Part shown: positions 4,840 to 39,946 of the stretch, piece after piece | How positions within the stretch are numbered: the first letter of the stretch is position 1 | Layout: every line of letters begins with the position of its first letter | Made by a program: the position numbers and the translations under genes | DNA from: a virus | Taxonomy: Duplodnaviria; Caudoviricetes | Strand: one strand, 5' to 3' | Virus record (IMG/VR): IMGVR_UViG_3300048606_000021 | Span: 1-43,191 of that record | DNA: 43,191 nt | The notes under the pieces: model-generated | Told to the model about the DNA's origin: nothing | The model's input: the letters and a program-made list of their open reading frames with translations, nothing else | Databases searched by the model: none

Positions 4840-5067
4840 GTGAACACGCACATCAATCTTCTGTTTGAGGCCGCTTCGCCAAGGGCGCGGTTCTTGACCT
4901 CGGCTTCCGGCGAAGCGTTTATCGCGCTCACGATTGGCGGATTCGACGCGATCTTGCCGGGCGCGGATGCCGCAGCCGTGGCCTCTGCGCGGGCCATTGC
5001 GGCGGCGCTGGGCACGGCGGCATGCGCGCTCGAAGCCGAGATTGAGCGGAAAGCGGTGGCCGCATGA
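4840..5067 (+). CDS. Hypothetical protein
   Basis: Fills operon; ATGA-coupled to 5064. Confidence 0.55.
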   Translation: MNTHINLLFEAASPRARFLTSASGEAFIALTIGGFDAILPGADAAAVASARAIAAALGTAACALEAEIERKAVAA

Positions 5068-6683
5068 GCGAACAGACCGCAACCGCCGTAGCCGACGCGC
5101 CGCCAGTGCGCGATCCGCAAGAGCTCGCGCTGATCGACCTGAGTTCTATCAGTTTCCCGCTCTTTCTCACGTCGGCCTCTGAGCCCGATCCGAACGCCGC
5201 GAGCACCAAGATCGTGGACCGGATTCGCGCGCTGACATCGCAGCACAAGCACGCCGCGATCTGTTGCGACTCGGGCCGCTCGTTCCGCGCTGACATCGAT
5301 CCGGCCTACAAGGCGCAGCGCGAAGCACAGCCGGCGGCGTATCACCATCAGGTCGCGCTCGCAAAGGAACGGCTCGAAGCGGACGGCTATCCGGTGTGGG
5401 CCGTCAAGGGCTTCGAGGCTGACGACCTGATCGCGACGGCGACGGCCAGGGCGCTGGCCATGGACGGCTCGGTGCTCATCGTCTCGGCCGACAAAGACCT
5501 ATTGCAGCTCGTGGGGCCGAAGGTGCGCGCGCTCTCCCCGGCGACCAACAAGGACTATGACGAGGCGGCGGTCGTCGCCAAGTTCGGCGTCCAGCCGTCG
5601 CAGATGCGCGATTATCTTGCGCTTGTCGGCGACGCTTCCGACAACATCGTCGGGGCTAAGGGCATTGGGCCAAAGAAGGCCGCCAATCTCTTGCTTCGCT
5701 TTGACAGTATCGCCAACCTGCTCGCGGAGATGAAAGGCGCCGATCTTCATGGGCCGCCTTCCATTGTTACGCCGTCAGAGTTCGTTTCGCTTGCCGAGTT
5801 CAAGGATCGCGCCGAGACGGTCTGCAGGCTGATCACGCTCCGCTTTGACGTGGAGTTGCCATTCGAGGAAGTCGCCGCCGAACGCGCGCCGCGCAATCAG
5901 GCGCCCATGGAGGACGAAGAAATGGAAGCATTGGAAACGCCAACAACCGCCATCGTCGGCGAAGTGTTGCCGCCGCTCGCGGCGCCCGTTCCGCAGAACG
6001 GCCCGGCGCCGGTTGCCGTTACGTCGTCTGGTCCGGTGGTCGCAACGCAGGCCGCGGCGCCGCCGGCCGCGCCCCCGGTCAGCATGGGCCAGGCGCTCGC
6101 CTCTCCCGAAGCGGTTGGCCTCGCGCCGGTCGAGTTCGAGAAACAGCTTGAGCCGCGCTCGCTGGGGCAGGCTGGCAAACTCGCCGAGTACATGCACCGC
6201 GCGGCCATGTTCAAGGGCTACGGCAACGCGCCCGCCGTGCTGTCAACCATCCTGGCGGGCCGGGAGCTTGGCATGCAGGCCATCGCGTCCCTGCGCGGCT
6301 TCCACGTAATCGAGGGCAAACACTCGTTGGCGGCTGACGCCATGCGCGGGCTCGTGCTGCGCTCCGGCGCCGCGAAATACTTCCGGGTCGTGGAGCGCAC
6401 CATCGAGCGCGCGACGTTCGAGACGTGGCGCAAAGACGATCCCGAGTCGATCCGCTTGACCTATACGATCGAAGAGGCGCGCGCCGCCTACGGTTTCGGC
6501 ACCGACGCGAACGAAAAAGCGCTCAACGAGCGTGAGGCGAAGTGGCGCGCAAGTTCCTGGGGCAAGCAGGCGGCTGACATGCTCGCGGCTCGGGCGTCGT
6601 CCAAACTCGCGCGGTTGGTCTACGCGGACATCCTGTTTGGCCTCTATTCGCCGGCCGAGCTTTCCGATCACGAGGCCGCGTAA
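5064..6683 (+). CDS. Fusion of PolA/T5-type 5'-3' exonuclease (FEN) and RecT/Red-beta-like ssDNA annealing domain
   Basis: FEN motifs FR...AYKAQR, GFEADDLIAT, SADKDLLQL, LVGDASDNIVGAKGIGPKKA (H3TH); Pro/Ala linker; C-domain ILAGRELGMQAIASLRGFHVIEGK...TYTIEEARAA...W...DMLAARA resembles phage RecT-like annealases. Confidence 0.8.
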   Translation: MSEQTATAVADAPPVRDPQELALIDLSSISFPLFLTSASEPDPNAASTKIVDRIRALTSQHKHAAICCDSGRSFRADIDPAYKAQREAQPAAYHHQVALAKERLEADGYPVWAVKGFEADDLIATATARALAMDGSVLIVSADKDLLQLVGPKVRALSPATNKDYDEAAVVAKFGVQPSQMRDYLALVGDASDNIVGAKGIGPKKAANLLLRFDSIANLLAEMKGADLHGPPSIVTPSEFVSLAEFKDRAETVCRLITLRFDVELPFEEVAAERAPRNQAPMEDEEMEALETPTTAIVGEVLPPLAAPVPQNGPAPVAVTSSGPVVATQAAAPPAAPPVSMGQALASPEAVGLAPVEFEKQLEPRSLGQAGKLAEYMHRAAMFKGYGNAPAVLSTILAGRELGMQAIASLRGFHVIEGKHSLAADAMRGLVLRSGAAKYFRVVERTIERATFETWRKDDPESIRLTYTIEEARAAYGFGTDANEKALNEREAKWRASSWGKQAADMLAARASSKLARLVYADILFGLYSPAELSDHEAA

Positions 6684-15872: not shown

Positions 15873-16453
15873 CCCTTCCCTGCGGCTGTCACTTCGATAA
15901 CGAGTGGCGTTTCTGGTTGAGCCCATATTGCACGATTCAGCATGTGACTGACGATGCCAATCGAGCCGTCGCGTGCGTGCGCTGTCACCAGCAGAAAGAC
16001 ATTCCCACTGGAACTGTCTGCGCGCACTGTCTTGTGGCTGATCCGTCACTCATCGAAGTGGTTCAAGAGAGTCGAGCGATGATGCGAGCAGCGATGGAAT
16101 CAGCACGAGCGATCGACGCGCGGCTCACGGATTCGGAGCTAGGTATATCGGACGGCTCCGCAACAGATCAACTACACGCGCTCAGTATCATCATGGCTAA
16201 AGTCGAACGCCAAGATGCTGAAATAGAACGACTTTCCTCCTCTCGGCTCACCGCCCTCCAAGGAGCGCTGGAGGAGATCACTGCTGCGTGTGAGGCCGAC
16301 TGCGGCGGATCCATCACCGACGACTGCTCAGACGATGAGCCTGTTGGATGGGGCGACGAACACCCGATGGCCCTCACGTTCGGCATGATGCGTCGTGCGC
16401 GTGCTCTACTGTCTGCCGTCCTCGCCTCCCCCCAACGCCAAGACACGAAATGA
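15869..16453 (+). CDS. Hypothetical Cys-rich protein
   Basis: ATGA-coupled at both ends, including to TerL. Confidence 0.5.
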   Translation: MTLPCGCHFDNEWRFWLSPYCTIQHVTDDANRAVACVRCHQQKDIPTGTVCAHCLVADPSLIEVVQESRAMMRAAMESARAIDARLTDSELGISDGSATDQLHALSIIMAKVERQDAEIERLSSSRLTALQGALEEITAACEADCGGSITDDCSDDEPVGWGDEHPMALTFGMMRRARALLSAVLASPQRQDTK

Positions 16454-17952
16454 GCCACGCCGCCCAGCTCACACCGACTGAAACCGTGCATGCCGAGCTC
16501 GCGGAGTTCGTGGGCCAGTATTACGCCGATCCGCTCGGCTTCGTCCTGGCGGCCTACCCATGGGGCGAACCTGGCCCGCTCGAGCACGAAGAGGGGCCAG
16601 ACGACAATCAGCGCGAGTTTCTAACGGCGCTGGGGCAGGAAGTCGCCTCGCGCGGCTTCGATGGCCGTTCGGCCGTCATGCCAATCCTGATGAACGAGAC
16701 GAGCGGTCACGGGACCGGCAAGAGCGCTATGGGCGGCTGGATCACCGACTGGATCATCAGCACGCGGCCTAACAGCATCGGCACGGTCACGGCGGGCACC
16801 GCCACGCAGCTCGAGGAACGCACCTGGGCCGCGATCCAGTATTGGACGAGCCTGTGCATTACGGCGCTTTGGTTCGACGTGCAATCGCGCGGGATCTACC
16901 ATCGCAACCATCCCGAGACATGGAAAGTCGTCGCGCAGACGTGCAAGGAAGAGAACGCGCAGAGCTTCGCGGGGCAGCATGCCAAAACGTCCACAAGCTG
17001 GTACCTGTTCGATGAGGCCAGCGAAGTCCCTGACAAGATTTGGGAGACAGCGGCCGGCGGCCTGACGGACGGTGAGCCCATGTTCATCGCGTGGGGCCAG
17101 ATGGTCAGGAACACGGGCGAGTTCTATCGCGTGTGCTTTGGCGACAAAGCTGCCCGGTGGAACCATCGCCGCGTGGACTCTCGCACGAGCCGCTTTACGA
17201 ACAAAGCCCTGATCCAGCAGTGGATCAGCGACTACGGCGAGGACAGCGATTACGTCAAGGTGCGCGTCTTCGGGTTGCCGCCGTCCGCGTCCGAGCTCCA
17301 GTACATCGACAAGGGGCGTATTGCGGCCGCCCGTGGACGTGGCATGGTGCATCTCCCCGACGATCCGCTAGTCGCCGGCTTCGACGTGAGCGGCGGCGGC
17401 AAGGCGTGGAACGTGATCCGCTTCCGCCGGGGCCTGAACGGCGACGCGCTGCCGCCGATTCGGATTCCTGGCGAGCATGACGCGGATCGGTCCAAGCGCA
17501 TCGGGATCTGCGCGGAGCTGCTGGCGGATCGCCGGCCCGATCATCAGCTCGCGGCGCTGTTCATTGACTCGGCCTTCGGGGCGGCGATTGCGGTCAGGCT
17601 CCAGGCGCTCGGCTTCCGGCACGTCTACGAAGTCAACTTCGGCGGCCAGAGCCCCGATCCGCACTTCGCGAACATGCGGGCGTATATGTACGGCAAGACG
17701 AAAGAATGGCTGTTACTGGGCGGGCTCCCCGACGACAAAGACTTGTGCGAGCAGCTGGCCGTGCCGGGCTATCACATCAACGCGTCGGGGAAGACGGTCA
17801 TGGAGTCCAAGGCGGATATCCAGGCCCGTGGCGAAAAGAGTCCGGACGATGCCGATGCGTTCGTGTTGACGTTCGCGCAGGCGGTGGCCGTGCGCCGCGC
17901 GACGCCGAAGCCGCCCAGCGCGCGCCCGCGCTCGAATGCGTGGATGCAGTGA
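16450..17952 (+). CDS. terL: Terminase large subunit
   Basis: Walker A SGHGTGKS, Walker B YLFDEASEV, nuclease GFDV...SPDDADA. Confidence 0.93.
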   Translation: MSHAAQLTPTETVHAELAEFVGQYYADPLGFVLAAYPWGEPGPLEHEEGPDDNQREFLTALGQEVASRGFDGRSAVMPILMNETSGHGTGKSAMGGWITDWIISTRPNSIGTVTAGTATQLEERTWAAIQYWTSLCITALWFDVQSRGIYHRNHPETWKVVAQTCKEENAQSFAGQHAKTSTSWYLFDEASEVPDKIWETAAGGLTDGEPMFIAWGQMVRNTGEFYRVCFGDKAARWNHRRVDSRTSRFTNKALIQQWISDYGEDSDYVKVRVFGLPPSASELQYIDKGRIAAARGRGMVHLPDDPLVAGFDVSGGGKAWNVIRFRRGLNGDALPPIRIPGEHDADRSKRIGICAELLADRRPDHQLAALFIDSAFGAAIAVRLQALGFRHVYEVNFGGQSPDPHFANMRAYMYGKTKEWLLLGGLPDDKDLCEQLAVPGYHINASGKTVMESKADIQARGEKSPDDADAFVLTFAQAVAVRRATPKPPSARPRSNAWMQ

Positions 17953-21253: not shown

Positions 21254-22210
21254 ATGCCCGATCCGGTAGTCGTGGAAGCAACGATCGAGACACCAGAGCA
21301 GGTAGCGGCCCCGACGCCGCTGGCAGACGTTGAAAGCCTCACGGAATACCGCGAGCGCCGCAGCAAAGGCGAAGAGCCCGGCGAGACACCGGAAGTCAAG
21401 ACCGAAGAGAAGGTCGAGACGAAAGCGGAAGTCGTTGCCGAGCCGGACGCGGCCAGCAAGGCAGGCAAAGAGCTTGCGGCCAAGCGCGGCAGTCTCCAGG
21501 CACGGATCGATGAGCTGACGCGCGACAAGCACACGTCGGCGAGCGAAACCGCCACGGCGCGCGCGGAAGCGGCGGCGCTCAAGGCGGAACTGGCGGCCCT
21601 GAAGTCGGGCAAGCCGGCCGAGACGAAGCCGGAGCCGAAAGCGGCCGTCGTGGATCCGAACGATCCCGAACCGGACATCGCGAAGTACGACGACTACACG
21701 AAGTACACGCGCGAACTGGCCCGCTGGGAAGCGCGCCAGGAGTTGAAGGCCGCCCGCGCCGAGACGGACGCCGCCAGCCGCACGACGGCCGCCGAGACGG
21801 CCCGCGCGACGGTCATGGCGAAGGGCGCCGAAGCGTTTGGCGACTTTCAAGAGAAAGTAGCCGCGTTCGAGGCCGCAGGCGGGCAGTATGCGCCAGCGGC
21901 GGTGCAAGTGATTCTGCGGCACGAGATGGGCCATGCGTTCGCGTATGCCTACGTGAGCGACCCGGCCATCGCGGCGCGGATCGACGGCGCAGACAGCCCG
22001 TACGCGGCGATGCTCGAAGCGGGCGCGGTGGTTGCGGAACTGAAGGCGGCCAAGGCGGCGGCTGACAAGCCCAAGCCGAAGCCGGTATCGAAGGCTCCGG
22101 CCCCGGTGGAGCCGGTTGCGGGTGAGTCGGTGGAAAGCACGCCGGACCCCGCCAATATGTCGTCTGTGACCGAGTGGCGCAAGCAGCGCGCGAAGTTCAT
22201 GGCGGCGTAA
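21254..22210 (+). CDS. Scaffolding protein
   Basis: Acidic/coiled-coil; LQARIDELT, PEPDIAKYDDY, SKAPAPVEP; between portal and coat. Confidence 0.85.
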   Translation: MPDPVVVEATIETPEQVAAPTPLADVESLTEYRERRSKGEEPGETPEVKTEEKVETKAEVVAEPDAASKAGKELAAKRGSLQARIDELTRDKHTSASETATARAEAAALKAELAALKSGKPAETKPEPKAAVVDPNDPEPDIAKYDDYTKYTRELARWEARQELKAARAETDAASRTTAAETARATVMAKGAEAFGDFQEKVAAFEAAGGQYAPAAVQVILRHEMGHAFAYAYVSDPAIAARIDGADSPYAAMLEAGAVVAELKAAKAAADKPKPKPVSKAPAPVEPVAGESVESTPDPANMSSVTEWRKQRAKFMAA

Positions 22211-22619
22211 GCAAGCGTGTGAAACGCGGCGTACATGGACGCGCGGGCGCAACCGAGGAAGCACAAGCGCTCGCGGGCTGATCGTTGCGGCTGAAAGATG
22301 CCGACGGGCCATGTTTAATTTTCAATATCCAGCGCTGTATACGCGCGGAACGACTCGCCGGCCGTAAGCCGCGCGCCAACGTCGGCGTAAATGGCGTGAC
22401 AGGAAGGAGAGACTTCCCTAGATTTTCCTTCTGATGGCGCAAGGAAAATCGAGCGCGCATTTTGGCGCGTCGCTTCGGCCATCGTTCTGAGTCACGGCGC
22501 GAACGTCGGCCCGCCTGGCGCAGTCTGTAGTTCCCGCGATGACTCCCCGCTAAGCCGGCCGGGACAGTCCGCAGAGATCGCCCGAATCGTGTTCGGGCCT
22601 CTGAGGCGTCCCCTTGGCC
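22211..22619 (+). ncRNA. Putative large structured RNA / coat 5' leader
   Basis: 403-nt gap with many nested complementary segments and a possible pseudoknot (see findings). Confidence 0.6.
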
Positions 22620-23843
22620 ACCAACGTATTTCTTACCGACGACATCATCACGCTTGAGGGTCTGTCCATCCTCGAGAACGAGCTCGGCTGCAAAGCCATC
22701 ACCGACCGCAAGTACGAGGCGCTGTTCGGCACGCACGGCGGGTCCAATCGTAGCGATACGATTCGCGTCCGCAAGCCGAACCAGTACACCGTCCGCACCG
22801 GCCGCACCTTCACCGCGCAGAACATCGAAGACCAGTACACGACGATGGTCGTGGACACACAGATCGGCGTGGACACCGAAATCTACTCCGACGAACTGAA
22901 ACAGGACTTGTCGTCCTTTTCGGATCAGGTCATCCGCCCGCAGATGGTGCTCCTGGCCAACTACGTGGACGCGGCGGTCCTCGCGGCGGCCTTGCAGACG
23001 CCGAACGTCGTGGGCACCCCCGGCACGGTCCCTTCGGATCTGCGGACCTACCTCGCGGCGGGCGTGAAGCTGGATCAGGGCGCGGCTCCGCGCGACGGGC
23101 AGCGTTCGGCGCTCATCGGTCCCACGATGCAGATGGAGATCGTGGACGGGCTGAAGGGCCTCTACAACAACCAGGGCAAGATCGGCGACCAGTTCACCAC
23201 GGGCGAAGTGTCGAGCAAGGCCGCGGGCCTGAAGTTCGCCATGGATCAGAACGTCGCGAATCACACGGTTGGCCCGCAGGGCGGAACCCCGCTCGTCACC
23301 AGCGTGCCGCTGAGCGGTGCGACCGCGCTTGTCACGAAGGGCTGGAACGCTGTGGCGGCCTCGCGCCTCGTGGTGAATGACGTGTTCACTGTGGCGAACG
23401 TCTACGGCGTGAACCCCGTCTCGAAGGCGAGCACGGGCGCGCTCCAGCAGTTCCGCGTGACGGCGGCGTTCTCCAGCGACGCATCCGGCAACGGCTCAAT
23501 CTCGGTCTATCCGCCCATGATCAGCTCGGGCGCGTATCAGACCATCACGGCTCTGCCGCAGGTGGACGCGCCGATCTCGGTGCTTGGCGCGCCGGGCACC
23601 GTGAGCGCACAGGGCATCGTGGCCCACAAGTCGGCGATTGCGCTCGCGTTCTGCGAACTGCCCAAGCCGGATGGCGTGGATCAGTCGTCCAGCAAGACGG
23701 ACAAGAAGCTCGGCATTTCCATGCGCTTCGTGCGCTGGTATGACGGGGACGCGGACCTGTGGAAAGCCCGTTTCGACATCAAGTACGGGATCAAGGTTCT
23801 GCGGCCGGAGTGGGTCTGCCGCGTCGCATCGGGCGCCGCCTAA
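22614..23843 (+). CDS. Major capsid protein, P22 gp5-like
   Basis: TTG start with GAGG; DTIRVRKP, FAMDQN, RFDIKYG..VLRPEW. Confidence 0.92.
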   Translation: MATNVFLTDDIITLEGLSILENELGCKAITDRKYEALFGTHGGSNRSDTIRVRKPNQYTVRTGRTFTAQNIEDQYTTMVVDTQIGVDTEIYSDELKQDLSSFSDQVIRPQMVLLANYVDAAVLAAALQTPNVVGTPGTVPSDLRTYLAAGVKLDQGAAPRDGQRSALIGPTMQMEIVDGLKGLYNNQGKIGDQFTTGEVSSKAAGLKFAMDQNVANHTVGPQGGTPLVTSVPLSGATALVTKGWNAVAASRLVVNDVFTVANVYGVNPVSKASTGALQQFRVTAAFSSDASGNGSISVYPPMISSGAYQTITALPQVDAPISVLGAPGTVSAQGIVAHKSAIALAFCELPKPDGVDQSSSKTDKKLGISMRFVRWYDGDADLWKARFDIKYGIKVLRPEWVCRVASGAA

Positions 23844-39060: not shown

Positions 39061-39308
39061 TGGCCGATTTCTCGCCGGCCGCCACGTTCAAGGCCGTCCA
39101 CGCCACGCTCAATGACGCCTTCGCGGCGATCCCTGACGGCCGCAACCATGCCGTGCTAGTGGATGCGACCGCGAGTCAGGCCGATGGCGTCGCTGCCCGC
39201 GTGCTCTATGTGCAGCGCGCGCCGAAGGGCTGGAACATCGTCCTGCAAGTCGGCTACGACGCAGAGCACGGCCTGTCGTCGGGTGTTGGGACTTTTAAGT
39301 CATGGTAA
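39060..39308 (+). CDS. Hypothetical protein
   Basis: TAATG coupling; beta-rich C-terminus ending in W. Confidence 0.55.
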   Translation: MADFSPAATFKAVHATLNDAFAAIPDGRNHAVLVDATASQADGVAARVLYVQRAPKGWNIVLQVGYDAEHGLSSGVGTFKSW

Positions 39309-39322
39309 TCGGGGGTTGGCCA

Positions 39323-39946
39323 ATGAAATTCCGAACTGTCTGCCTTTGCGCTCTTCTGTTGGCGATTTGCAACACGGCGCATGCCGCTGACTGGACCGCC
39401 ATCGCGAAAAAGGCCAACGAGTCCATCGTCTACATCGAAAGCGCGTCCGGCTCGTGTACCGGGTTCGTGATCAACAGCGACGCCAAGGGCGGCAAAGACT
39501 ACATCCAGACGGCCGCGCACTGCGTGGGCGCGGATATCTTCGCGGATTCCGCCGTCGCGCGCGTGATCTGGAAAGACACCAAGCACGATCTGGCGATTCT
39601 CGAGGTTGAGGACACCGGCCGCCCGGCGCTCCGGCTCGCGAAAAGCAACCCGCAGATCGGCGAAGAGGTTGCCAGTTACGGCTACGGCATGGCGCTGGCC
39701 CGGCCGATGTTCCGCACGGCGCACGTCAGCGACGACGCGAGCGAGCTCCCCGAGATCGAGGGCGGGCCGTTCGTGATGATCGATGCGGCCTACGTCGGCG
39801 GGCAGTCGGGCGGGCCGTGCATCAACGCGGCCGGCGAAGTCGTCTCGATTGTGCAGCGCGCGTCGGGGCTGGTTGGCGTCGGCGTCGGCGCTGAGCGCCT
39901 CGCGTCCAGGGCCGGGCGCTACTACGAAAAGGCGGTCAAGCCTTGA
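39323..39946 (+). CDS. Secreted trypsin-like (S1) serine protease
   Basis: Signal peptide MKFRTVCLCALLLAICNTAHA; TAAHC, DLAIL, GQSGGP triad. Confidence 0.9.
   Translation: MKFRTVCLCALLLAICNTAHAADWTAIAKKANESIVYIESASGSCTGFVINSDAKGGKDYIQTAAHCVGADIFADSAVARVIWKDTKHDLAILEVEDTGRPALRLAKSNPQIGEEVASYGYGMALARPMFRTAHVSDDASELPEIEGGPFVMIDAAYVGGQSGGPCINAAGEVVSIVQRASGLVGVGVGAERLASRAGRYYEKAVKP

Follow-up and report, generated by a model that had tools for sequence, protein, structure and literature searches.

How coat output is matched to scaffold on one late transcript in tailed phages is poorly explained, and most relatives of the phage studied here simply abut the scaffold and coat genes. What, then, occupies the 403 nt between these genes in the 43,191-base virus record IMGVR_UViG_3300048606_000021 (Duplodnaviria; Caudoviricetes), the whole of which is called the window below? 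The record has direct terminal repeats. On its + strand, a portal gene (PF16510) is followed by the gene of a scaffolding protein (21254–22210; phrog_8865 head scaffolding protein, E 2.5e-26) and then by a P22-type major capsid (coat) gene (22614–23843; PF11651, E 5e-27; phrog_283). The coat gene starts at a TTG, and its N-terminus agrees with those of ATG-started relatives. The first-pass annotation described the scaffold–coat gap as the largest gene-free gap of the genome. This holds for the internal gaps among the + strand ORF calls, the runner-up being 196 nt, and the stretch spanning the genome ends may equal it in length.

Elsewhere in the window, a 534-aa ORF (16348–17952) has phrog_5902 (unknown function) as its sole match, and no terminase Pfam model matches it. 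We take it to be the large terminase by its position and its ATPase-like and nuclease-like motifs, and an apparent absence of terminase was dropped once this ORF was read. A 5'–3' exonuclease fused to a RecT-like domain (5064–6683) occurs as the same fusion in G004. The window, G003, G004, and G001:C358 share a trypsin-like protease (39302–39946 in the window) whose N-terminus is signal-like, and the G003 copy (L441:8308–8919) sits between portal and scaffold.

To place the gap among its relatives, we gather 175 coat loci from three collections and remove 27 that are cut at the 5' end, nine without a start call, and 43 duplicates. In the 96 loci kept, the scaffold–coat gap is at most 30 nt in 82, 31–100 nt in two, and more than 100 nt in five, and seven have no upstream gene in view. 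Two of the five long gaps carry an element at the same place as in the window, namely L089 (coat 68% identical to that of the window, gap 264 nt) and L013 (58% identical, gap 316 nt). Those of L057 and L126 are unrelated to it, and that of L309 is a miscall with a true gap of ~22 nt. At a coat identity of at least 50%, 13 of the 16 distinct loci or rows have gaps of 3–27 nt, the exceptions being L089, L013, and a cut copy of the latter. In a quick coat tree, the window, L089, and L013 belong to one clade of 39 rows (SH-aLRT 96) with all short-gap loci outside it, and the element is present in all three clade members whose DNA was compared. In four clade proteins, miscalled N-terminal extensions resemble the 3' arm of the coat-proximal hairpin described below (domain 3), a weak sign that further clade members may carry the element. 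The closest named relative of the window, a member of a Gemmatimonadaceae bin, lacks it.

When viral, metagenome, and genome contigs are searched for the coat, just the two known families of homologues come up. Five DNA-pattern scans of viral contigs, one of them covering 46 of 64 parts, find no further member, and their other matches are rejected because the remaining blocks are absent. Phage and plasmid records contain no DNA match to the element. A model built from the first two hairpins only (R1; P1 and P2) finds, under E 1 in 39 sources, no sequence besides its three training copies, and has no match in 151 genomes of Gemmatimonadota, a phylum that may not be the host's. The pattern of the invariant block M4 occurs in four of 401 genomes (a tally that includes G102), below its own reversed control. 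In each of the three genomes, the element is single-copy and joined to the coat start. One copy per genome in three genomes, with the carriers in one clade and not patchy, leads us to reject a mobile insertion (MITE or intron). In L089, the scaffold stop is followed, with no base between, by the element, which is therefore probably transcribed by read-through from the late operon.

Several features indicate that the conserved part of the gap acts as RNA. The fourfold sites of the coat gene approach saturation, with 33 of 117 sharing one base across all three sequences. The element, by comparison, has invariant blocks of 14 (M1), 10 (P5–M3), and 15 nt (M4) in all three, and a 6-nt junction between P1 and P2 is also invariant. 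Every + strand frame in the element is interrupted by stops in all three sequences. One − strand frame is open in all three, and the spacings of the blocks differ by non-multiples of three, indicating that this frame is not a shared gene. The whole 403-nt gap has a folding energy modestly below that of shuffled sequences (z −2.44 on the + strand and −1.91 on the − strand). The + strand folds better in all three sequences (z −2.2, −1.9, and −2.5 versus −0.9, −0.5, and −1.0), and the chosen helices, read on the + strand, contain 18 G–U and no A–C among 242 pairs, indicating an RNA on the coding strand. Folding better than shuffles applies to the whole gap and to domain 3 (z −4.0) and fails for domain 1 of the first-pass annotation (z −0.08), and several sub-domains fold no better than shuffles.

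The first-pass annotation proposed an undescribed, multi-domain structured RNA of ~400 nt in front of the coat gene. The structured element is real, and the conserved unit is shorter, ~290 nt (22328–22619, + strand). It is conserved and covarying in three divergent phages, and no Rfam 15 family reaches the gathering threshold in the window, L013, or L089, the best weak matches having E values above 1. We find no description of the element in the open literature, within which the alignments of PMC10690425 (mmc1–5) may hold the motif under another label. By sequence comparison, the gap thus holds a real, clade-specific, previously uncatalogued structured RNA.

The comparative fold rests on three distinct sequences (window, L089, and L013), and its helices are picked after inspection. 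The 5' part of the gap (22211–22327), which the first-pass annotation counted as a structured domain, is a non-conserved spacer outside the element: its fold is at chance level, and it is missing in L089. In L013, an unrelated 14-bp GC hairpin without a U-tract (L013:2194–2229) occupies its place. The element itself begins with the P1 hairpin (22328–22349), which has 3+4 bp, a 5' purine bulge, and a 7-nt loop; 21 of 21 cells are paired, with one two-sided change. The invariant 6-nt junction (22350–22355) leads to the P2 hairpin (22356–22373), which has a bulged C and a pentaloop and contains the invariant block M1 (22358–22371); here 18 of 18 cells are paired, with two two-sided changes. Taken together, P1 and P2 have 39 of 39 cells paired and three two-sided changes, a result equalled in 16 of 500 shuffles. 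In each of the two variants of the P1 loop, the last six bases are self-complementary, though four of the six differ, and this site (window 22336–22342; L013:2247–2253) could be a kissing-dimer site.

The variable hairpins P3a and P3a2 (22374–22417) are replaced by one GUAA-capped hairpin in the homologues. The long hairpin P3b (22421–22450) corresponds to the 10-bp stem of the first-pass annotation and has homologous hairpins of unlike sequence in L089 and L013. Its loop (22432–22438) pairs with 22478–22484 to form a pseudoknot (22432–22484) of 7 bp in the window and 8 and 7 bp in the homologues. The target of the pseudoknot stops 3 nt before P4 in all three sequences; two columns are two-sided, and the per-sequence shuffle p values are 0.069, 0.012, and 0.053. 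A short hairpin, P3c (22454–22469), is found in all three. P4 (22487–22523; 8 bp) surrounds the invariant P5 hairpin (22496–22507) and an 8-nt 3' bulge, the first six bases of which are invariant (M3, 22508–22513). Given a 1-nt bulge in the window, 22 of 24 cells of P4 are paired and seven of its eight columns are two-sided; the null with shuffled flanks gives 19 of 200,000 trials. On a plain MAFFT alignment, P4 is supported in the register of the homologues (9/500) and not in that of the window. The invariant 15-nt block M4 (22549–22563) overlaps the foot of domain 3 and holds an 8-nt palindrome. The self-duplex energies of the M1 and M4 palindromes are −12.7 and −20.1 kcal/mol, respectively. 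The comparative fold lies 18–24 kcal/mol above the free minimum, before ~10–12 kcal/mol are counted for the pseudoknot.

The compensatory changes support P1, P2, P4, the 10-bp stem with its loop pseudoknot, and the hairpin that covers the SD and start (domain 3). All helix strands named in the first-pass annotation are present where it placed them, and both homologues repeat its 10-bp stem and pseudoknot, with compensatory changes. Its long-range nesting of five helices fares less well. Two of these helices fail in the homologues (11/21 and 13/24 cells), one is partly kept (14/18), and one is invariant (15/15 cells) and so carries no covariation signal; the fifth has its 5' strand inside a window-specific insertion. 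Most of this nesting is replaced by the local hairpins P1, P2, P4, and P5. Among the three sequences, covariation thus extends to P1, P2, P4, the pseudoknot, and domain 3 and not to two of the long-range helices.

Domain 3 (22557–22619) is a long imperfect hairpin over the SD-like GAGG (22603–22606) and reaches the TTG start, in accordance with the earlier proposal. Compared with chance, its fold energy has z scores of −4.0 in the window and −5.8 and −3.7 in the homologues, which form the same fold from differing sequence. The hairpin has 22–25 bp and an internal loop or bulge in all three. As in the RBS-sequestering hairpins of the T4 type, the SD and start are predicted to lie inside a stable stem, again in all three. 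Opening positions −14 to +3 costs 12.2, 16.3, and 17.8 kcal/mol in the three carriers and 16–20 kcal/mol in the full element. Among 17 short-gap coat genes, the mean cost is 8.2 kcal/mol (maximum 13.5); among 20 other genes of the window, it is 8.6 kcal/mol (maximum 15.1), so that the 12.2 kcal/mol of the window is high but within range. Because the hairpin covering the SD and start is kept in all three sequences, we favor a cis-regulatory role for the element; it may also set the coat:scaffold ratio, as the first-pass annotation suggested. A scan of the gap for sigma-70-type promoters gives a single match (22396–22424), far upstream of domain 3 and in a non-conserved part. Together with the start of the element in L089, this suggests that the element is probably internal to a late transcript.

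We tentatively propose, with somewhat less than even confidence, that the element is a cis-acting gate on coat translation in the late mRNA and is opened by a phage protein, probably scaffold. Domain 3 is predicted to pair over the SD up to the start codon, which would make OFF the default state. If a conserved structure blocks initiation on the most abundant protein, an opener is needed. P1–P5, the pseudoknot, the unpaired invariant M1 loop, M3, and M4 could serve as the binding platform for a phage protein, and the likeliest ligand would be scaffold, which is made just upstream from the same late transcript. No clade-specific RNA-binding protein or RNA-binding family is found among the 25 small ORFs scanned. 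Upon binding, M4 and the 5' arm of domain 3 would change to other pairing partners and free the ribosome site, and coat synthesis would thereby be tied to scaffold supply. Two specific pairings considered for the ON state lack support in the set as a whole. A competing helix, P6, appears in the nascent-chain folds of each sequence, where it cuts the opening cost by ~10 kcal/mol, and beats shuffled arms in only one of the three (33, 2, and 136 of 300). An M1:M4 pairing lowers the opening cost in one of the three only.

By analogy, such a gate would work most like the leader pseudoknot of T4 gene 32, which is bound by its own protein, and the RBS-sequestering hairpins that T4 also has, as both are presented in the cited passages of PMC3014915. 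In the gene 32 leader, which likewise belongs to a phage mRNA, a pseudoknot precedes the start and a protein platform controls translation; the latter is the role proposed here for the element, whose pseudoknot has 7–8 bp with compensatory changes in all three sequences. However, the small T4 pseudoknot precedes an unstructured A+U tract and represses (PMC3014915, cited passage), whereas the element has 290 nt, many helices, a sequestered SD, and a capsid gene downstream, and no sequence likeness is seen. In the hairpins of T4 e, soc, 49, and I-TevI, the stem holds the SD and start on long transcripts, as domain 3 is predicted to do. These hairpins are single, are relieved by a nearby late promoter, and lie on genes kept low (PMC3014915 and PMC2988022, cited passages), whereas the gene here encodes the most abundant protein, the conserved upstream domain is large, and no conserved promoter is seen.

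The P22 head module is of the same kind, and the N-terminus of P22 scaffold is implicated in translational autoregulation (bioRxiv 10.1101/2022.12.13.520362). However, this concerns the synthesis of scaffold itself, and the passage cited describes no scaffold–coat RNA element. In the supplementary tables (mmc6–8) of Fremin et al. 2023 (PMC10690425), DNAVirus_7287 is the only candidate within 25 bp of a P22_CoatProtein gene. It differs in being 103 nt long, gut-associated, and flagged as a terminator, and is by this description, as distinct from its sequence, unlikely to be identical with the element.

An alternative to the gate, unlikely although a serious contender, is that the element serves processing, either as a self-cutting RNA of an unknown ribozyme class or with domain 3 as the site of a host double-strand RNase. 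Cleavage would free a stable, open coat mRNA and so raise coat over scaffold. In accordance with this, invariant unpaired bases adjoin the pseudoknot, and domain 3, an imperfect 22–25-bp hairpin interrupted in all three sequences by an internal loop or bulge, resembles the RNase III sites and processed hairpins of T7. However, Rfam gives no ribozyme match, and the core consensus motifs of hammerhead, twister, T-box, and group II intron domain V are absent from all three sequences on either strand. The element shares with HDV-like/theta ribozymes (PMC10879173, cited passage) that it is a phage-borne pseudoknotted RNA, and P4, P5, and M3 can be drawn in a similar strand order. In contrast to these ribozymes, no tRNA adjoins it, and a descriptor search detects neither a nested double pseudoknot nor a J4/2 cytosine; the descriptor, which is self-made and without positive control, has no match in the three sequences on both strands, and Rfam is negative. 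By these sequence criteria, the element is not a member of this class.

A bolder reading, and a rather unlikely one, is that the 230-nt pseudoknotted core represents a new class of phage RNA machine that acts either by cleavage of the late transcript (a new ribozyme class) or by palindrome-driven self-assembly. In the second case, the core would load ribosomes on, or scaffold, the capsid gene product. Either way, head assembly in P22-like phages would come under RNA control.

It is improbable that the element is an independent trans-acting ncRNA (~230 nt, P1 to M4) that forms dimers or oligomers in head assembly, with domain 3 as a mere 3' guard. The self-complementarity of the P1 loop hexamer, retained despite four base changes, and the palindromes in M1 and M4 are consistent with it, and by its position such an RNA would be expressed alongside the head genes. 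However, only two P1 loop variants exist, so the palindrome may be chance; the core is not followed by a U-tract terminator; and the single copy in each genome is always fused to the coat start.

Quite improbable is a late promoter or operator at the DNA level combined with timing in the T4 style, in which the palindromic invariant blocks bind a transcription factor, domain 3 blocks read-through transcripts, and a late start within domain 3 frees the SD. In favor of it, an HTH protein is among the products of the phage, sigma-70-like promoters occur in the corresponding gap of a distant clade, and T4 e, soc, 49, and I-TevI work in this way (PMC3014915 and PMC2988022, cited passages). However, the compensatory changes and G–U pairs over 200 nt upstream, together with the pseudoknot, indicate RNA, and the lone promoter-like match sits in the non-conserved part.

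A metabolite-sensing translational riboswitch of a new class, which would time capsid synthesis to the state of the host, is very improbable. Its anatomy would fit, since an aptamer-like part is followed by a hairpin that covers the SD. Classes of riboswitches usually have host copies, however, and the element is absent by model from the 151 Gemmatimonadota genomes and not above control by pattern in the 401 genomes, with the reservation on the host phylum given above. Riboswitches are found, rarely, in phages (PMC9004378, cited passage). The guanidine-II riboswitch (RF01068) is a translational ON switch, and a single hairpin capped by ACGA can be placed across the foot of P1. Guanidine-II is defined by two hairpins 7–40 nt apart, each with an ACGR tetraloop (PMC5558903, cited passage), whereas the element has one conserved ACGA and no second hairpin, its other ACGR sites being unshared. 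In place of the two G–C pairs under the tetraloop, the window has A–C as the closing pair, and the second pair is G–U in all three sequences. The score is 12.7 bits versus 32, and the drawn hairpin conflicts with the covarying P1; the assignment is thus rejected.

A neutral GC-rich insertion or mobile-element remnant with chance structure, for which the high GC and the sub-domains that fold no better than shuffles might speak, is hardly credible and already largely refuted by the invariant blocks amid near-saturated silent sites, the P4 null (19/200,000), and the single copy at one position in one clade.

If the element is a gate on coat translation, a clade in which a large pseudoknotted RNA hides the start of the most abundant protein would offer a defined construct for translational coupling in head assembly. 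Few large phage RNAs with an invariant core are on record, and this group, to which the element would be added as a candidate, has yielded new classes of riboswitches and ribozymes.

That such a solution has arisen repeatedly is suggested by another clade, in which an unrelated leader occupies the same position. In the distant AT-rich clade L314–L391 (coat ~35% identical), the scaffold–coat gaps are 203 nt or longer and contain an extended −10-like promoter and a terminator-like hairpin, together with a conserved leader of ~130 nt that differs from the element (e.g., L331:2780–2910 and L328:1149–1276). Among 20 sequences, four of the nine consensus pairs of this leader have two-sided changes, and the GCC of a hairpin loop has two possible pairing partners, both of them conserved GGC sites. 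In the eight loci scanned, the Rfam matches are tRNA only. From these sequence features, the leader is a good candidate for a motif of its own. In the same clade, group I introns (RF00028, 90 and 88 bits) are inserted close to the coat start in L319 (3862–4141) and L333 (3666–3946). The scaffold–coat gaps of L314, L321, L323, L328, L330, L365, L356, L368, and L373 include tRNA genes, and this set of gaps also holds a small co-chaperonin-like ORF and homing-endonuclease-like ORFs of ~200 aa, both labeled by impression.
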